Below are positions 37,812-47,510 of a DNA stretch of 64,000 bases, one piece after another. The number at the start of each line of letters is the position of its first letter. The stretch's first letter is position 1. The notes below the pieces were generated by a model. The model was not told where the DNA came from, searched no databases, and worked only from the letters and a program-made list of their open reading frames with translations. This stretch comes from a virus (lineage: Duplodnaviria; Caudoviricetes). The stretch lies in IMG/VR virus record IMGVR_UViG_3300025601_000007. One strand, 5' to 3'. Position numbers and translations under genes: made by a program.

Positions 37812-39629
37812 ATGAGCGGACTTATTTCCGATTACCAAGATAAATATATCATTTCCGAGTACTATACATTTAATGCTCCAACCCGTGAAATGATTATAGA
37901 GGCTGAAAAAAAATATCAGCCTATCGTGATGTCTGGAATTCTTCAGATAGCAGATACGTTAAATAAAAACGGTCGAATTTACCCATACGAAATTTTAAAG
38001 CGCGAGGCTGATAAGTACATGGAGCTCGTAAAGGAAAACGTGGCTGGTGGTGAACTTGACCATCCTGATTGCAACTCATTAGACACTAGCATTTTAACCA
38101 TTAACGGCTGGAAGAAGCTAATAGATATTGCAGAAGATGAGTTTATATATACTTTAAATCAGGAAACTAATAAAATTGAGGCTCATAAGATTGATAAAAA
38201 AATCTTAGAACCCTATAGTGGTAAGATGTATCACTTTAAGGGTAAAGGAATTGATTTGATGGTTACTCCAAATCATAGATTTATACTTGAGACATCTGAT
38301 GGGGTATCTTTTGAGAAGACAGCATCTGAGCTGTCTGAGTATAGAAGCGGAAAGTGGAGAATTCCTAAAAAAGGAAATTGGGATGGAATTAATTACGATT
38401 CCTATATAATCCCTGGAATCGAAGAGTTTAAACCACACATAAGCAATGAGCTTAAGGATAAATATTCTCAAAACCTTGTTGTTAATGCAAAAGCGTGGTT
38501 TGCTTTTTTAGGTTTGTATCTAGCTGATGGAACTTCTGCTGGAGTGTGTGGGAGCAAAGCAAAACACAACCTCGTTAAAATTACACAGAAGAAGTCTGAG
38601 AATTTTGAGGCAATTAGAAAAATATTTGATGATTTAGGGATAGAGTATAACGAACGTGTTTATAGAGATGGGAAAATAGATTTTCAAATTTACGATGCAC
38701 GACTTAAGCAATATCTATTTCCTTTAGGGAATAGTTCTGAAAAATACATTCCAGAAGATATAAAAGCAGCTAATTCAGAATTGCTGACTATTCTTTTTGA
38801 AAATTTTCACATGGGAGATGGAACATCTAAAACATCTTATCATAAAGACAAAGGATATGTGTGTAAAAAGATTTTTTCTACTTCAGAAAAGATGATTAAA
38901 GACTTTAGTGAGGTGCTGTTAAAAATAGGGCTCCACGGAAATATAACTCAAGAACAACCTGTAGATAGATATATAAATGATGTAGTCGTTCTTGAAAAAG
39001 AAGTGGTGATGTCAGATGGGGCTGTAGAGATGGTTAAAGAAGAAATTTTAAAACCAAGATTGATTGAGGCTAAAAATAGTAAAACTAAATTCATCCTTAA
39101 TGTTAGCACTACAGATTTTATTTACATGGATGAGAGATTTTTAAAAATCTCTCAAATCCAAAACCCGTTTGATAAAGTAGCTTGTGTCAGAGTTAAAAAC
39201 GGAAATTTCTTTGTAATGCGTAATGGTAAATCCCATTGGACTGGAAACTCCGCAGTTGTATCTCTCGCTAATGTTTCACACCGTGTTGTTGAGATGTGGT
39301 GGGAAGGAAAAGAATTATGGGGCCGAGTGCAAATTGCTGAAACAGATGCAGGCAACACGTTGAAGGGTCTTCTAAAAACTGGATTCAAATTAGGAATTTC
39401 TTCTCGTGGAGTAGGAAGTGTTAAGTCTCAGGGTGGACAAGACATTGTGCAAGATGATTTTGAACTAATCGCTTTTGATTATGTATCAAACCCATCAACC
39501 CCAGGGGCTTACCTTTTTAAAGAAGGTTATATGAGACCACTTAAAGGGGTTAAAGAAAAAGCTAAATCAATAGGAGAGCTTAACCGTTTACAACTTATTT
39601 CTCAGAAATCTTTCTGGCAATCAGCGTAA
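37812..39629 (+). CDS. gp21: Prohead core protease (T4 gp21-like) containing an intein
   Basis: NKNGRIYP, GELDHPD/S, LGISSRGVGS, DYVSNPSTPGA. Confidence 0.93.
   Translation: MSGLISDYQDKYIISEYYTFNAPTREMIIEAEKKYQPIVMSGILQIADTLNKNGRIYPYEILKREADKYMELVKENVAGGELDHPDCNSLDTSILTINGWKKLIDIAEDEFIYTLNQETNKIEAHKIDKKILEPYSGKMYHFKGKGIDLMVTPNHRFILETSDGVSFEKTASELSEYRSGKWRIPKKGNWDGINYDSYIIPGIEEFKPHISNELKDKYSQNLVVNAKAWFAFLGLYLADGTSAGVCGSKAKHNLVKITQKKSENFEAIRKIFDDLGIEYNERVYRDGKIDFQIYDARLKQYLFPLGNSSEKYIPEDIKAANSELLTILFENFHMGDGTSKTSYHKDKGYVCKKIFSTSEKMIKDFSEVLLKIGLHGNITQEQPVDRYINDVVVLEKEVVMSDGAVEMVKEEILKPRLIEAKNSKTKFILNVSTTDFIYMDERFLKISQIQNPFDKVACVRVKNGNFFVMRNGKSHWTGNSAVVSLANVSHRVVEMWWEGKELWGRVQIAETDAGNTLKGLLKTGFKLGISSRGVGSVKSQGGQDIVQDDFELIAFDYVSNPSTPGAYLFKEGYMRPLKGVKEKAKSIGELNRLQLISQKSFWQSA
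38070..39248 (+). mobile_element. 393-aa intein with LAGLIDADG-like domain
   Basis: Starts CNSLDTSILT, block B VTPNHRF, ends ACVRV...HWTGN before Ser; GLYLADG and NFHMGDG motifs. Confidence 0.9.
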
Positions 39630-42826: not shown

Positions 42827-43228
42827 TTAAGCCTGTTCGTAATATCCTTCGATTTGTCTTTTTGCTCCTGCTCCAGCTGTGAAGTCATGCGTGTCTTGGA
42901 ATACTCCGTCAACACATGCAACCAAATGGTCTGTTGCCAAGGCTGCAATTGTTCTTTTTGGCATTAATTCATTCTGTGGTGGCACTGGACGACGCATATT
43001 TGTCCATTTCCATCCATGCTCAGCCATATACTTATCGAGTACGTGGAACTGAACTCCACTACCCTCATGCTTGGGGTCATCATCCAAGCTTAGTTTAAGC
43101 AGAACATCATGAACTTTTTGGTATGGCTCCTTAGTAACAATAGCTACAGCTCGATAAACACAAGCTCCATCTGTGGGTTCGAAGCCAGCCTCGACTCGAC
43201 CTCCATCATTTTGATTCCATTTCATCAT
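42827..43228 (-). CDS. Phage hypothetical protein (DGG...GACVYRAVAI family)
   Basis: 133 aa with Cys in CVYRA and His in HLVACVDG. Confidence 0.65.
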   Translation of the reverse strand: MMKWNQNDGGRVEAGFEPTDGACVYRAVAIVTKEPYQKVHDVLLKLSLDDDPKHEGSGVQFHVLDKYMAEHGWKWTNMRRPVPPQNELMPKRTIAALATDHLVACVDGVFQDTHDFTAGAGAKRQIEGYYEQA

Positions 43229-43301
43229 AAACTAGTATTTAGATATGTAACGGGTTGTTTTTAATAGCATAACCAATATACGCAATAAACCAGAAAAAGT
43301 T

Positions 43302-43367
43302 TCAAGTTACATTTTGTTGTGTTGTCGTTTTTAGTCTCATATCAATTTTTGTTGTCTTTAGTCTCAT
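43302..43367 (-). pseudogene. Vestigial array unit (MRLKTTKIDMRLKTTTQQNVT)
   Basis: Two in-frame ATGAGACTAAA starts 27 nt apart, then TGA. Confidence 0.75.
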
Positions 43368-43627
43368 GCCAATATAAGTCTTATTGTAGTCCAATCCCAT
43401 TCAATCCAGGGGACAGGCCTAGCGGTCCCCTTGTGGATTTCAACGAACCAATCCCCAGGGAATCCATCAGGAAACCACACTTCATAAACCTCACCTGGCC
43501 TGTTTTGAAGACGCAACGCTACCAAATATGGGTACCGCTTCGTGGGTTCAAACCCACCACGAATCAATGCGTCTTTGCATGCATCACTTGCATTACATGC
43601 ATCTGTTTGTGCTGTTTTCAGTCTCAT
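43364..43627 (-). CDS. Array paralogue 11
   Basis: 87 aa, MRLKTAQTDAC. Confidence 0.85.
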   Translation of the reverse strand: MRLKTAQTDACNASDACKDALIRGGFEPTKRYPYLVALRLQNRPGEVYEVWFPDGFPGDWFVEIHKGTARPVPWIEWDWTTIRLILA

Positions 43628-43884
43628 ACCAAACTAAATATTATTGTATTGGTCCAATCCCAAGAAACAAAGCTGATGGTTTTGGGGCCAACAACGGTCC
43701 CTTTGTCGATTCGAACGAATCTATCCCCAAGGTATCCATAAGAATGGAAGTGCGCTCCATAAACCACTTCACCTGGCTTATTTTGAAGCCGCAACTGCCA
43801 CGGGCTGATAGTTTTAAACCCACCACGAATCAATTGTTCTTTGCATGCCTCTGTTGATGTCGTTTTTGCCGTTTTCAGTCTCAT
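43624..43884 (-). CDS. Array paralogue 10
   Basis: 86 aa. Confidence 0.85.
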   Translation of the reverse strand: MRLKTAKTTSTEACKEQLIRGGFKTISPWQLRLQNKPGEVVYGAHFHSYGYLGDRFVRIDKGTVVGPKTISFVSWDWTNTIIFSLV

Positions 43885-44144
43885 ACAAATATAAGTGTTA
43901 TAGGATTAGAAGAATCCCATTCAATAAAGCCACGATGGTCTTTAGAGGCAAGCGTAACTAAAGACCCTTTATGGATTCGAACGAACCAATCACTGCGGTA
44001 TCCATCAGGAGAGAGCCACACTTCATAAGCCTCACCTGACTTTTTTTCACCAAGCCACAACCGCCAGAGGTGCCTTATCGAGGCTTCGAACCCACCACGA
44101 ATCAATGCTTTTTGGCATGCATCTGTTGCTGTTTTTAGTCTCAT
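43881..44144 (-). CDS. Array paralogue 9
   Basis: 87 aa from the coupled ATG; in-frame extension to 44180 possible. Confidence 0.85.
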   Translation of the reverse strand: MRLKTATDACQKALIRGGFEASIRHLWRLWLGEKKSGEAYEVWLSPDGYRSDWFVRIHKGSLVTLASKDHRGFIEWDSSNPITLIFV

Positions 44145-44407
44145 ACCAATATAAGTGTTATTACATTGGTCCAATCCCAATCAACCCAACCATCGCTGAT
44201 TTTGGGGCCAGCAACGGTTTCTTTGCGGATTCGAACGAACCAATCCCTTCGGTCTCCATCGTGAGGAAACCACACTTGATAAATCACTGGACCTGGCTTT
44301 TCTCCACCAAGTTGCAAAACCAAACACTGTGGGTTGTTCGCGTCTTCGAACCCGCCACGAAGCAATGTCTCTTGGCATGCGTTTGCTGTTGTCGTTTTCA
44401 GTCTCAT
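44141..44407 (-). CDS. Array paralogue 8
   Basis: 88 aa. Confidence 0.85.
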   Translation of the reverse strand: MRLKTTTANACQETLLRGGFEDANNPQCLVLQLGGEKPGPVIYQVWFPHDGDRRDWFVRIRKETVAGPKISDGWVDWDWTNVITLILV

Positions 44408-44682
44408 ATCAATTTAAGCCTTATTTCACTGGTCCAATCCCAATCAACCGAACTGTTGGAGGCAGGCCCAATGGTCCCTTTGTGGATTCGAAAAAATAAA
44501 TACCAACGGTATCCATCGCGAGGGAACCACACATCATAAGCCTCACCTGGCTTGTCTCCTCCAAGACGCAACTCAAAAGCCCGCGAGCTGTACGTCGTGT
44601 CTTCGAACCCACCACGAATCAATGCCTCTTGGCATGCATCGCTTGCATCGCATGCATCTTTTGTTGTCGTTTTCAGTTTCAT
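44404..44682 (-). CDS. Array paralogue 7
   Basis: 92 aa. Confidence 0.85.
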   Translation of the reverse strand: MKLKTTTKDACDASDACQEALIRGGFEDTTYSSRAFELRLGGDKPGEAYDVWFPRDGYRWYLFFRIHKGTIGPASNSSVDWDWTSEIRLKLI

Positions 44683-44930
44683 ACCAATCTAAGTCTTATT
44701 GTACTGGTCCAATCCCAATCAACCCCGCTGATGGTTTTGGAGCCCCCAACGGTCCCCTTGTAGATTCGAACGAATCCGCTCCTACGGTATCCATCGCCAG
44801 GAAACCACGCTTCATAAACCTCACCTGATTTGTTTCCAAGACGCAACCGCCACATGTCCCCATTGTGTTTTTTGAACCCACGACGAATCAGTGCCTCTTG
44901 GCATGCATCTTTTGCCGTTTTTAGTTTCAT
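44679..44930 (-). CDS. Array paralogue 6
   Basis: 83 aa. Confidence 0.85.
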   Translation of the reverse strand: MKLKTAKDACQEALIRRGFKKHNGDMWRLRLGNKSGEVYEAWFPGDGYRRSGFVRIYKGTVGGSKTISGVDWDWTSTIRLRLV

Positions 44931-45196
44931 ACCAATATTAGGATTATTCTATTGGAAAAATCCCAATCACCGTTGTCTTTGTAGCCAACAACAGTCCCTT
45001 TGTAGATTCGAACAAATTCACCCTCAAGGTATCCATCATTAGGGAACCACAAATCATAAACCTCGCCTGGCTTGTCTCCTCCAAGACGCAACTCAAAAGC
45101 CTGCGAGCTGTACGTCGTGGTTTCACACCCACCACGAATCAATGCCTCTTTGCATGCATCTGTTGCGTCTTTTGTTTGTGCCGTTTTCAGTTTCAT
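44927..45196 (-). CDS. Array paralogue 5 (mosaic)
   Basis: 89 aa; blocks shared with units 2, 3, 4 and 7. Confidence 0.85.
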   Translation of the reverse strand: MKLKTAQTKDATDACKEALIRGGCETTTYSSQAFELRLGGDKPGEVYDLWFPNDGYLEGEFVRIYKGTVVGYKDNGDWDFSNRIILILV

Positions 45197-45459
45197 ACCA
45201 ATCTAAGTATTATTGTGTTGGTCCAATCCCAATTACCCAAACCGTTGGGGGCAGGCCAAATGGTCCCTTTGTGGATTGTAACAAACAAATCCCAACGGTA
45301 TCCATCAGGAGGGAACAACGCTTCACAAACCTCGCCTGGCTTGTCTCCTCCAAGACGCAACAGACGCACGCTGTACGTCACGTTTTCAAACCCACCACGA
45401 AGCAATACCTCTTTGCATGCGTCTGTTGCGTCTTTTGTTTGTGCCGTTTTCAGTTTCAT
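45193..45459 (-). CDS. Array paralogue 4
   Basis: 88 aa. Confidence 0.85.
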   Translation of the reverse strand: MKLKTAQTKDATDACKEVLLRGGFENVTYSVRLLRLGGDKPGEVCEALFPPDGYRWDLFVTIHKGTIWPAPNGLGNWDWTNTIILRLV

Positions 45460-45731
45460 ACCAATCTAAGTATTATTTTGTTGGTCCTATCCCAAAAAAC
45501 AAAGCCAATGCTGGTTTTGGAGGCAGCGGTCCCTTTGTAAATTCGAACAAATTCACCCTCAAGGTGTCCATCACAATAGAACCACACATCATAAACCTCG
45601 CCTGGCTTGTCTCCTCCAAGATGCAGCCCCTCTGTGCTGTTCGTCATGGTTTCACACCCACCACGAATCAGTGCCTCTTTGCATGCATCTGTTGCATCTT
45701 TTGCATTTGTTTTTTCTGTTTTTAGTCTCAT
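45456..45731 (-). CDS. Array paralogue 3
   Basis: 91 aa from the coupled ATG; in-frame extension to 45767 possible. Confidence 0.85.
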   Translation of the reverse strand: MRLKTEKTNAKDATDACKEALIRGGCETMTNSTEGLHLGGDKPGEVYDVWFYCDGHLEGEFVRIYKGTAASKTSIGFVFWDRTNKIILRLV

Positions 45732-45970
45732 ACAAATGTAAGTATTATTGTACTGGAAGAATCCCAATCACCGTTGTCTTTGTAGCCAACAACAGTCCCT
45801 TTGGTGATTCGAACGAACCAATCCCAACGGTATCCACGAGGGAACCACACATCATAAACCTCACCTGGCTTGTCTCCTCCAAGACTCAACCACTGCGAGC
45901 TGTACTTGGTTTTAAACCCACTACGAATCAATTGTTCTTTGCATGCATCTTTTGCCGTTTTCAGTCTCAT
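45728..45970 (-). CDS. Array paralogue 2
   Basis: 80 aa. Confidence 0.85.
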   Translation of the reverse strand: MRLKTAKDACKEQLIRSGFKTKYSSQWLSLGGDKPGEVYDVWFPRGYRWDWFVRITKGTVVGYKDNGDWDSSSTIILTFV

Positions 45971-46227
45971 ACCAATCTAAGTTTTATTGTGTTGGTCCAA
46001 TCCCAATCATACCAACCGATGCTGTTTTTGGGGCCAGCAGTCCCTTTGTCGATTTCAACAGACCAATCACTGGGGTATCCATCATTAGGGAACCACGCAT
46101 CATAAACCACTTCACCTGGCTTGTCTCCACCAAGACGCAAAACCTGCGAGCTGTACTTATCGTCTTTGAACCCACGACGAAGCAATTGCTTTTTGCATGC
46201 ATCTGTTTGTGCCGTTTTCAGTTTCAT
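45967..46227 (-). CDS. Array paralogue 1
   Basis: 86 aa. Confidence 0.85.
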   Translation of the reverse strand: MKLKTAQTDACKKQLLRRGFKDDKYSSQVLRLGGDKPGEVVYDAWFPNDGYPSDWSVEIDKGTAGPKNSIGWYDWDWTNTIKLRLV

Positions 46228-46281
46228 ACCAATTTAAGTATTATTGTATTGGTCCAATCCAAACATCGCTGTGTTTATGAA

Positions 46282-46305
46282 AAAATATACGTTAATTTTC
46301 AATAA
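46282..46305 (-). promoter_or_regulatory. Putative array promoter
   Basis: TTATTG-aaaattaacg-TATATTTT upstream of the 10-codon leader ORF at 46266. Confidence 0.45.
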
Positions 46306-46313
46306 GGGTTACA

Positions 46314-47510
46314 TTAGTAACTAACGGGAAAAGGAATCACATCGTGAATCTTCTCCGCTTTCGTCAAGAACATAACCAGGCGCTCAAATCCCATTCCGAA
46401 CCCAGCATGTGGAACCGTCCCCCATTTACGAGTGTCTAGATACCATTGCATAGATTTTGAATCCACGCCAGCTTCTTCCATTTGAGTTTTTAGCGTATCG
46501 TGGTCCTCTTCTCGAACAGAGCCTCCAATCAACTCTCCAACTTCTGGGAACACCAGGTCAAAACAAATTGCCTTTCCACCTTCTCTCTTCATATAAAATG
46601 GTTTGAGGTCCTGTGGCCAGTGAGTGATAAACACAGGGCCTTTGTGGTGCGCAACTATTTCACGCTCTAGTTCAGTTCCTACATCTTCTCCATATGACAA
46701 ACCAAACTCATCACATACTTCTTGATATGTTATTCGAGAATACCTGGCACCAACCTCAGATTTAAGTGATTCCAAGGTTACTCCCAACTCTTTTTGATGG
46801 CCACTTTTACCAAGTGAAACAGCCACTTTGGCAATTGTCATTCTCAGCATAGACTCGGCAAAATCCATTATTTGCTCTAAGTCATAATGAGCCAGCTCAG
46901 GTTCAATCATCCAGAACTCAGACAAATGCTTTCTGGTTGATGATTTTTCAGCTCGAAAACATGGACCAAAAGTGTAGATTTTCCCCAACGCCATCATACC
47001 AACTTCTCCATGAAGCTGACCCGAAACCGTTAAATGTCGTTTGAGCCATTCTGATTCGGCTGAAAACTGTTCTCCAGCACCCTCACAATCTGAGCTGGTC
47101 ATAATCGGTGTGTGATATTGAGATACTGACTCCTCATGCATAAACGAGTGTAATGCAAAGCTTGTTTCGCTTCGTGCGTGCATAATAGCGCACATGCGTC
47201 GGTCTCGCCCTCGTGTCTGAGGAATCGTTCTAAGAAAGCTTGAAGAGTGAAATTTAGGCTGAACTGGGTAATCTTCTCCAGACTCGCCAAGAACCTCAAT
47301 TGAAGTTGCTTTGAATTCATAATCTCCCCTGGGGGTTCTCCCATCTTCACCCTGCATTTGAATAGACGCTCCAGCAGATAACCCTAGGGAGACTTCGCAG
47401 TCTGAGTGTTTTATTGTTACTTGAAATTCCTCTTGCCCGTCCGTGACGGCTAAGAATGTTAATGCTTTGGATTTACGCACGGAACGAATCCATCCTTGTC
47501 TTGTTTTCAT
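46314..47510 (-). CDS. asnS: Asparagine--tRNA ligase
   Basis: OB-fold GWIRSVR, LTVSGQLHGE, FRAEKSSTRKHLSEFWMIEPE, GELIGGSVRE, PHAGFGMGFER. Confidence 0.95.
   Translation of the reverse strand: MKTRQGWIRSVRKSKALTFLAVTDGQEEFQVTIKHSDCEVSLGLSAGASIQMQGEDGRTPRGDYEFKATSIEVLGESGEDYPVQPKFHSSSFLRTIPQTRGRDRRMCAIMHARSETSFALHSFMHEESVSQYHTPIMTSSDCEGAGEQFSAESEWLKRHLTVSGQLHGEVGMMALGKIYTFGPCFRAEKSSTRKHLSEFWMIEPELAHYDLEQIMDFAESMLRMTIAKVAVSLGKSGHQKELGVTLESLKSEVGARYSRITYQEVCDEFGLSYGEDVGTELEREIVAHHKGPVFITHWPQDLKPFYMKREGGKAICFDLVFPEVGELIGGSVREEDHDTLKTQMEEAGVDSKSMQWYLDTRKWGTVPHAGFGMGFERLVMFLTKAEKIHDVIPFPVSY

Follow-up and report, generated by a model that had tools for sequence, protein, structure and literature searches.

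What does a phage gain from a small gene that it carries many times over, in diverged copies lying head to tail? The question is raised by a stretch of viral DNA of 64,000 nt (Duplodnaviria; Caudoviricetes), analysed here in full and referred to as the window, which belongs to the IMG/VR record IMGVR_UViG_3300025601_000007, a fragment of 92 kb estimated to be 29% complete. On its minus strand, from 46227 to 43364, lies a tandem array of 11 intact, paralogous open reading frames (ORFs). The descriptive part of our answer is held with high confidence: an orphan gene whose soluble product has about 87 residues has been amplified head-to-tail in two arrays within one jumbo T4-like phage lineage. 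As a whole, we read the arrays as a lineage-specific viral multigene family, amplified and recombining, which probably provides a repertoire of polyvalent binders or inhibitors, and our confidence in this complete reading is evenly balanced. The contigs that carry the arrays come from Ace Lake, Antarctica, from the 0.1-µm fraction of its upper waters sampled between December 2006 and August 2014, as dated by their sample numbers (PMC7416419); the 'cyanophage' label used in that publication is not transferable to them.

Anatomy and coding status of the array

Read along the minus strand, the array consists of unit 1 (86 codons, 45967-46227), unit 2 (80 codons, 45728-45970), unit 3 (91 codons, 45456-45731), unit 4 (88 codons, 45193-45459), unit 5 (89 codons, 44927-45196), unit 6 (83 codons, 44679-44930), unit 7 (92 codons, 44404-44682), unit 8 (88 codons, 44141-44407), unit 9 (87 codons, 43881-44144), unit 10 (86 codons, 43624-43884) and unit 11 (87 codons, 43364-43627). 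Units 3 and 9 start at an internal ATG that overlaps the stop of the preceding unit, giving products of 91 and 87 aa, and the stop and start codons overlap as ATGA at every unit-to-unit junction. The length of each unit is a multiple of three, and the repeat period of the array is about 266 bp (Tandem Repeats Finder, TRF). In the protein alignment of the 11 units 18 columns are invariant and mean column identity is 62%; the constant blocks are M[RK]LKT, DAC..L.RGGF, GGDKPGEVY, VRI.KGT and DWDWT, and a GTI.PA block is common to units 4 and 7. The first-pass annotation, made from the letters of the window alone, had described 11 intact ORFs of 80-92 aa joined by ATGA, with length differences that preserve the frame, and had listed the same constant blocks and the GTI.PA block; a recheck of the ORFs and the alignment confirmed its observations in every detail, including the identity blocks of unit 5 described below.

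The only truncated pieces at the window array are two relics at its ends. Upstream of unit 1 lies a truncated unit tail (46228-46263, minus strand; W-D-W-T-N-T-I-I-L-K-L-V-like DNA), so that the sequence ahead of unit 1 is the one found ahead of every other unit; the same relic is present in the two other haplotypes described below. At the opposite end an ORF of 21 codons (43302-43367, minus strand), ATGA-coupled to unit 11, comprises two truncated unit heads, MRLKTTKID and MRLKTTTQQNVT. These two relics explain the outer coordinates (43302-46266) given in the first-pass annotation.

Collapse or expansion of repeats during assembly had been named as a result that would undermine the array. Over 12.2 kb that take in the whole array, the window agrees at 100% identity with a JGI contig of 207,840 bp, the array is also spanned by independent European Nucleotide Archive (ENA) assemblies, and more than half of its 31-mers are present in 24 salt-lake runs; it is therefore not misassembled. 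The analysis of selection and phylogeny drew on 26 contigs, which yielded 63 distinct units. Nearly all of these are intact; only a small number of variants are broken, fused or truncated. All indels across the 63 are in frame. In 27 well-conserved columns the proportions of synonymous and non-synonymous change were 0.24 (pS) and 0.04 (pN), a ratio of non-synonymous to synonymous change (dN/dS) of 0.15, so that the columns of the scaffold have changed synonymously without amino-acid change. This constraint, the in-frame lengths and the predicted fold together indicate that the units are genes for a folded protein and not a non-coding repeat.

An AlphaFold2 model built from a 71-sequence alignment (predicted local distance difference test, pLDDT, 76; predicted template-modelling score, pTM, 0.64) places a helix at residues 3-17, followed by strands at 21-23, 26-33, 40-45, 56-67 and 73-84. 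Variation, with dN/dS given in brackets, is concentrated in three segments that connect these elements: V1, the connector from helix to strand together with the short first strand (1.25); V2, the loop before the fourth strand (1.08); and V3, the tip of the last hairpin (1.03). The earlier proposal of one small fold with variable parts thus agrees with the model and the dN/dS values, as a constant scaffold carrying three variable connecting segments. The isoelectric points of the units span 4.8-10.2, and no hydrophobic N-terminal segment or export signal was found in the units.

The family is confined to this phage lineage, as judged by profile searches of 5.8 billion clustered proteins and of 1.84 billion representatives. 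That it had not been recognised at first reading is borne out, since the units matched nothing in Pfam, PHROGs, NCBIfam or the PDB sequence profiles. Likewise, blastn against 50,697 phage records gave no match, a pattern scan of viral contigs gave no relatives, and a feature-based search of the ESM Atlas gave no usable match. A weak likeness to PepSY (PF03413) runs in register over profile positions of about 10-72, with a helix followed by VY[DE][VI]xF..GY..D..I..(K/T)G. Four of the eight sub-threshold profile matches among the 1.84 billion proteins were PepSY-repeat proteins, by way of summed weak repeats of 8-17 bits each, and alignment of the unit with PepSY profiles by hhalign gave a weak match (probability 26.6%, E 6.9e-4, 54 columns). 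The Pfam PepSY model gave no match in an hmmscan of the 11 units even at E<=1, and no PepSY structure appeared in six fold searches (Foldseek, VIA); the family is not assigned to PepSY. The units also differ from PepSY in having no export signal and in an extra C-terminal strand with a W-D-W motif. Four further matches (P0076, P0077, P0081 and P0082), which are internally repetitive, Ricin-repeat or Kelch-repeat proteins, were set aside as spurious summed-repeat matches.

Recombination within and between two arrays

The units of the window are 66-86% identical in pairwise nucleotide comparison, and this identity is patchy. Unit 5, a four-way mosaic of units 4, 7, 3 and 2, shares 44/44 positions with unit 2 (44959-45002 vs 45760-45803), within the 3' half that the two have in common, 43/45 with unit 3 (44994-45038 vs 45529-45573), 53/54 with unit 7 (45066-45119 vs 44546-44599) and, across the start junction, 68/69 with unit 4 (45146-45214 vs 45409-45477); these four blocks exactly reproduce those first noticed. 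A sliding-window map of unit 5 runs from unit 4 through units 3/7, 7 and 3 to unit 2, the tract shared by units 2 and 5 has a global p of 0.017, and the pairwise homoplasy index (PHI) test on 84 informative sites gave z = -5.9, with 0/2000 permutations as low (p<0.0005). Further, a unit on contig L014 joins the first 119 nt of unit 6 of the window to the last 144 nt of unit y3 of a second haplotype (C, described below), and by its sequence is a direct recombinant between haplotypes. The map, the test and this chimera support the earlier claim that recombination between units produced the mosaic pattern.

Recombination also acts inside units, as indicated by duplicated, deleted and fused variants on other contigs (P0001, P0075, P0072 and P0074 are such unit variants): a 123-aa unit in which the middle blocks are duplicated internally, 71-aa and 54-aa internal-deletion variants, a fusion of 158 aa and a 95-aa product of a frameshift. 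In some units the N-terminal segment is lengthened in frame by 9-nt tandem repeats (GATGCATGC and variants; GCATGCATC-type, in 2-3 copies), which encode D-A-C/T/S triplets and are located in the window at 43578-43603, 44632-44658, 45418-45437 and 45684-45711; they represent a second, slippage-type source of length variation.

Copy number varies between genomes that are otherwise nearly clonal. Flanking sequence of the first array, compared over 7.6 kb on its upstream and 5.1 kb on its downstream side, is 99.6-100% identical, yet the array comprises 10, 11 or 13 units. Haplotype A, that of the window, contains units u1-u11; haplotype B contains two further units, x1 and x2, followed by u1-u11 (13 units); and haplotype C contains x1, x2 and y1-y3 followed by u7-u11 (10 units). 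Unit 6 closes the variable proximal block, which is exchanged between haplotypes, and unit 7 opens the five distal units, which are identical or nearly so in all of them. Copy-number and mosaic variants in related phage genomes had been predicted from the window, and these three lengths and the L014 chimera are such variants. The assembled haplotypes are few and discrete. A contig of 19 Nov 2008 is 100% identical to the window array (haplotype A), and haplotype C is unit-for-unit alike in contigs of 21 Nov 2008, 3 Jul 2014 and 20 Aug 2014, which indicates that turnover proceeds on an evolutionary and not on a per-infection time scale. In the fragmented Logan unitigs of one run, unit-specific depth was 17-26x against 30-32x in the flanks, a gap that hints at co-existing haplotypes and is not a measurement of them.

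A second array of 22 units, fully spanned by a 60-kb contig, lies downstream of a YqeY-domain gene among small overlapping genes, with a gene for an extracytoplasmic function (ECF)-type sigma factor nearby. The anatomy of its ends is like that of the first, with a unit head of 14 codons as the closing relic, and among its haplotypes are one with a replaced proximal block and variants with a deletion, a frameshift or the internal duplication that gives the 123-aa unit. The maximum-likelihood tree mixes the units of both arrays, with 14-16 label changes compared to about 17-18 when the labels are shuffled, and an exact tract of 138 nt is common to unit 1 of the window and one unit of the second array. 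On contig L036 an intact unit has its tail where other haplotypes keep only the tail relic, and over 2.97 kb this contig is colinear, at 89% identity, with the second array in an alternative haplotype. As these sequences show, blocks of several units move between the two arrays. The units of both share the same contig of 446,956 bp as their longest carrier, from which we infer one genome with about 32-35 copies.

Homology is concentrated, and breakpoints fall, in the junction (unit tail, ATGA, unit head) and in the internal conserved blocks, which are thus the likely substrate for crossover and gene conversion. Change in the arrays therefore comes about through unequal crossover at these conserved junctions and blocks, gene conversion within and between arrays, and recombination between co-occurring strains.

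Candidate function and rival explanations

We propose that the units serve as polyvalent small binders or inhibitors of variable host or competitor proteins, a functional interpretation that we hold tentatively, somewhat short of even confidence. Recombination deletes, adds and replaces blocks of units and generates chimeric ones. In the proposed mechanism, all units would lie on one message, probably together with the upstream gene, as no terminator-like site was found between that gene, asnS, and unit 1. Translation by termination and reinitiation at ATGA would then allow the whole repertoire to reach the cell at once. Each product would be a rigid helix-plus-sheet scaffold presenting three fast-evolving segments and a variable surface charge, and each would bind or inhibit with a specificity of its own, its targets being variable proteins of the host or of rival phages, such as defence effectors or toxins.

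Several lines of evidence lead to this proposal. The first array lies between asnS and a gene for a 133-aa protein next to gp23, on the strand opposite gp23, the scaffold gene, the prohead protease gene and a gp13-like gene; in T4-type phages, small overlapping genes opposite the late strand are the layout typical of early, host-directed genes, and the position of both arrays on the non-late strand among small genes therefore favours a host-directed role. In addition, amplification of counter-defence genes is known in T4-type phages (PMC9391042, PMC13096335), and the layout and strain variability of the arrays match those of the homogeneous polyimmunity loci of bacteria, which are tandem SUKH/Imm paralogues (Zhang et al. 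2012, PMC3482391). As in those loci, small paralogues in the same orientation are minimally spaced and presumably polycistronic, and the number and type of units vary between close strains; the logic we propose is also that of polyimmunity, i.e. many functionally equivalent binders with different specificities. The arrays differ from polyimmunity loci in belonging to a lytic-type jumbo phage, in having no sequence relation to Imm or SUKH proteins (no Pfam match) and in the absence of a toxin context.

In phages, the arrays would correspond both to these loci and to the multigene families that large DNA viruses carry. Growing, shrinking and recombining tandem multigene families mark the host-virus arms races of poxviruses, asfarviruses and giant viruses; in T4, amplifications of a transient kind are known. 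The MGF110/360/505 multigene families (MGF) of African swine fever virus (ASFV), for instance, are lineage-specific arrays of paralogues whose copy number varies between isolates and which are thought to act on the host; they belong to a eukaryotic virus, and their proteins are larger and not translationally coupled, whereas the phage units are small and coupled. In its most specific form, more tentative again than the general functional proposal, the arrays would constitute a self-renewing library in two block-exchanging loci, its more than 30 miniature binders expressed together and neutralising shifting host defence effectors or toxins.

Three points weigh against this interpretation. An overall dN/dS of 0.86 would also fit relaxed constraint on copies that are in part redundant; the placing of both arrays in one genome is inferred only from the shared longest carrier; and none of the 24 runs holding the array is on record as RNA.

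The most serious alternative, although an improbable one in our view, is a diverged genomic accordion, in which a past amplification for dosage (for instance, to out-titrate one host factor) was followed by drift and recombination among the copies, so that the units are equivalent and their variety is a by-product rather than a repertoire. The head-to-tail copies, the copy-number polymorphism in near-identical genomes and an overall dN/dS near 1 would all be expected of it, and tandem amplification of counter-defence loci is known in T4-type phages, as in the dmd-tifA or SegB-driven amplification of T4 (PMC9391042, PMC13096335). Against this, the units are old and diverse, yet nearly all 63 are intact; the 27 scaffold columns remain strongly constrained, and change is concentrated in the three connecting segments and in surface charge. 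Poxvirus K3L is also a genomic accordion, and with it and the T4 accordions the phage arrays share recombination-driven tandem amplification of a small, putatively host-directed gene in a large dsDNA virus and polymorphic copy number between near-identical genomes. However, the copies in those experimental accordions are young and almost identical, arising within laboratory passages, while the units of the arrays are mosaic at 66-86% identity, spread over two loci and stable for at least 6 years in nature.

A structural or assembly role is unlikely. The products would associate with the virion, as head-internal, decoration or neck accessory proteins, or would be subunits of a hetero-oligomer kept equimolar by coupling, which is suggested by the location of the first array between the gp23/protease module and the gp13-like neck gene and by translational coupling as a means of balanced synthesis; phiKZ-like jumbo phages also carry paralogous families of head proteins. 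The array is, however, on the strand opposite the structural genes, related phages with the same structural module are without it, strains with identical structural genes carry 10, 11 or 13 copies, and the second array lies in a non-structural region of small genes. Nor was a conserved [LI]xE head-protease site or a shared targeting-sequence pattern, as in packaged head proteins of the T4 type, present among the units: [LI]xE occurs at any one column in at most 6 of the 63 and never near the N-terminus.

Programmed diversification of the cassette type, with high-frequency segmental conversion yielding new variants within infections, is very unlikely. The first-pass annotation had drawn this analogy with antigenic variation and had named the array a candidate combinatorial diversification system, so that its interpretation as a whole is partly supported: the recombining family is supported, the programmed system is not. 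Patchwork identity of non-adjacent units and significant recombination do recall Neisseria pilE/pilS and Borrelia vlsE, where segments are likewise exchanged between related coding cassettes. In contrast to those systems, all units are complete and coupled, and because each has its own start, stop and translational coupling, there is no single expression site with silent, truncated donors; evidence of high-frequency switching is likewise absent, and the products are not surface-exposed antigens of their carrier. No reverse transcriptase (RVT_1 match) was found in the 92-kb record, which covers only about 29% of the genome, the substitution spectrum of the units has no adenine bias of the kind produced by diversity-generating retroelements, and the genes called beside the two arrays include no recombinase. 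Together with the handful of discrete haplotypes, and with haplotype C the same in November 2008 and in July and August 2014, this fits ordinary homologous recombination acting on repeats. Finally, a non-coding tandem DNA repeat or assembly artefact, open in one frame by chance, for which the regular TRF period and the presence of antisense ORFs of 109-144 aa could be cited, is extremely improbable and already contradicted by the present data, namely synonymous-only change in the scaffold columns, in-frame indels across 63 distinct intact units, a confident AlphaFold2 fold and the same array in independent assemblies and 24 runs.

The system is of a known kind, an accordion-like viral multigene family, and is distinctive in that it is large for a phage, has two loci between which exchange takes place, is built on an orphan fold and is preserved in a natural time series. 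We know of no described phage counterpart of this size, from a literature that was not searched exhaustively, and to our knowledge no natural phage case has been described in which more than 30 diverged copies occupy two loci that exchange with each other. If the repertoire interpretation is true, the arrays use an orphan fold for a viral 'polyimmunity' or counter-defence repertoire, in which the tail-ATGA-head junction is both coupling signal and recombination substrate, and they offer a concrete candidate for a polyvalent counter-defence locus. If instead the units are functionally equivalent, they are still a clean, old genomic accordion in a wild phage population. The 8-year metagenome series of a closed lake would allow the rates of unequal crossover and gene conversion in a phage to be measured in a natural time series, and a compact orphan scaffold with three naturally randomised segments is of interest for binder engineering.

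Insertion site and neighbouring genes

The gene directly upstream of the array, asnS (46314-47510, minus strand), encodes a class II tRNA synthetase of the asparaginyl/aspartyl type (Pfam tRNA-synt_2, E 2e-63, plus an anticodon OB domain). The downstream neighbour, p133 (42827-43228, minus strand), encodes the conserved 133-aa protein, which has no Pfam match and whose homologues in related phages (61-85% identity) have no array upstream. In one relative, L042 (asparaginyl-tRNA synthetase 72% and 133-aa protein 85% identical), this gene follows asnS after about 37 nt, with no array between them; a second, L041 (gp23 89% identical in amino acids), has neither asnS nor the array. No homologue of the units was detectable at the loci of these two phages, and the unit family is also absent from relatives of the YqeY locus. 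The empty site in related phages indicates that expansion of the array is lineage-specific.

Copies of the ancestral asnS-to-p133 spacer, recognised by alignment with the spacers of L041 and L042, are present on both sides of the array, which identifies the array as an insertion. Copy 1 (46264-46313, minus strand) includes a CGTATATT box at 46284-46291; copy 2 (43229-43311, minus strand) reads TGTAAC..TTGAAAC..TTTTT..CGTATATT, with the box at 43275-43282 and about 40 extra bases before p133. The CGTATATT motif occurs only 4 times in the window, two of these flanking the array, and was rejected as a general promoter box on account of this low number; a scan of promoters and terminators gave counts not above those of shuffled sequence. 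The units have a GC content at third codon positions (GC3) of 0.42, which exceeds that of the long ORFs of the window by only about 1 sd and gives no clear sign of foreign origin. L041 retains the last codons of asnS (..FPVSY-like DNA, L041:7935-8000) ahead of its spacer, a remnant which indicates that asnS was deleted there and not gained in the Ace Lake phage.

The capsid protein of the window is a distant gp23, its best named relative being that of a Microcystis phage (44% identity over about 62% of the length). Each array is found directly 3' of a translation-related gene, the first after asnS and the second after the gene with the YqeY (GatB-like) domain (L025:2261-2707), which may be coincidence or may reflect a shared expression context. 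The 98-aa gene that follows the second array and the 133-aa gene that follows the first are unrelated to each other, and neither has a Pfam family. Upstream of the second array (L031:1863-6988 / L037:3424-8791) are about 20 more small genes of 53-129 aa, many of which overlap by a few bases and none of which has a Pfam match. In L043, whose YqeY protein is 64% identical, the YqeY gene is followed by three paralogues of about 90 aa (L043:1265-2456), two of them ATGA-coupled. They belong to another family with no detectable relation to the units (hhalign probability 0.3%); the site after YqeY may be a general hotspot for the expansion of small genes.

A role of homing endonucleases in promoting segmental amplification has been reported for T-even phages (PMC13096335). 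Beyond window position 47510, genes for a free-standing HNH endonuclease and an SNase-like protein lie between the gp13-like gene and a 930-aa gene (L019:2158-3587). The prohead protease gene (Peptidase_S77; window about 37812-39629, plus strand, equivalent to L012:10256-12073) encodes 605 aa and has a LAGLIDADG_3 signal inside it; the corresponding gene is called as 468 + 131 aa in strain L019, and it encodes only 212 aa in L041. This sequence pattern suggests a putative intein or homing-endonuclease insertion in the head protease.

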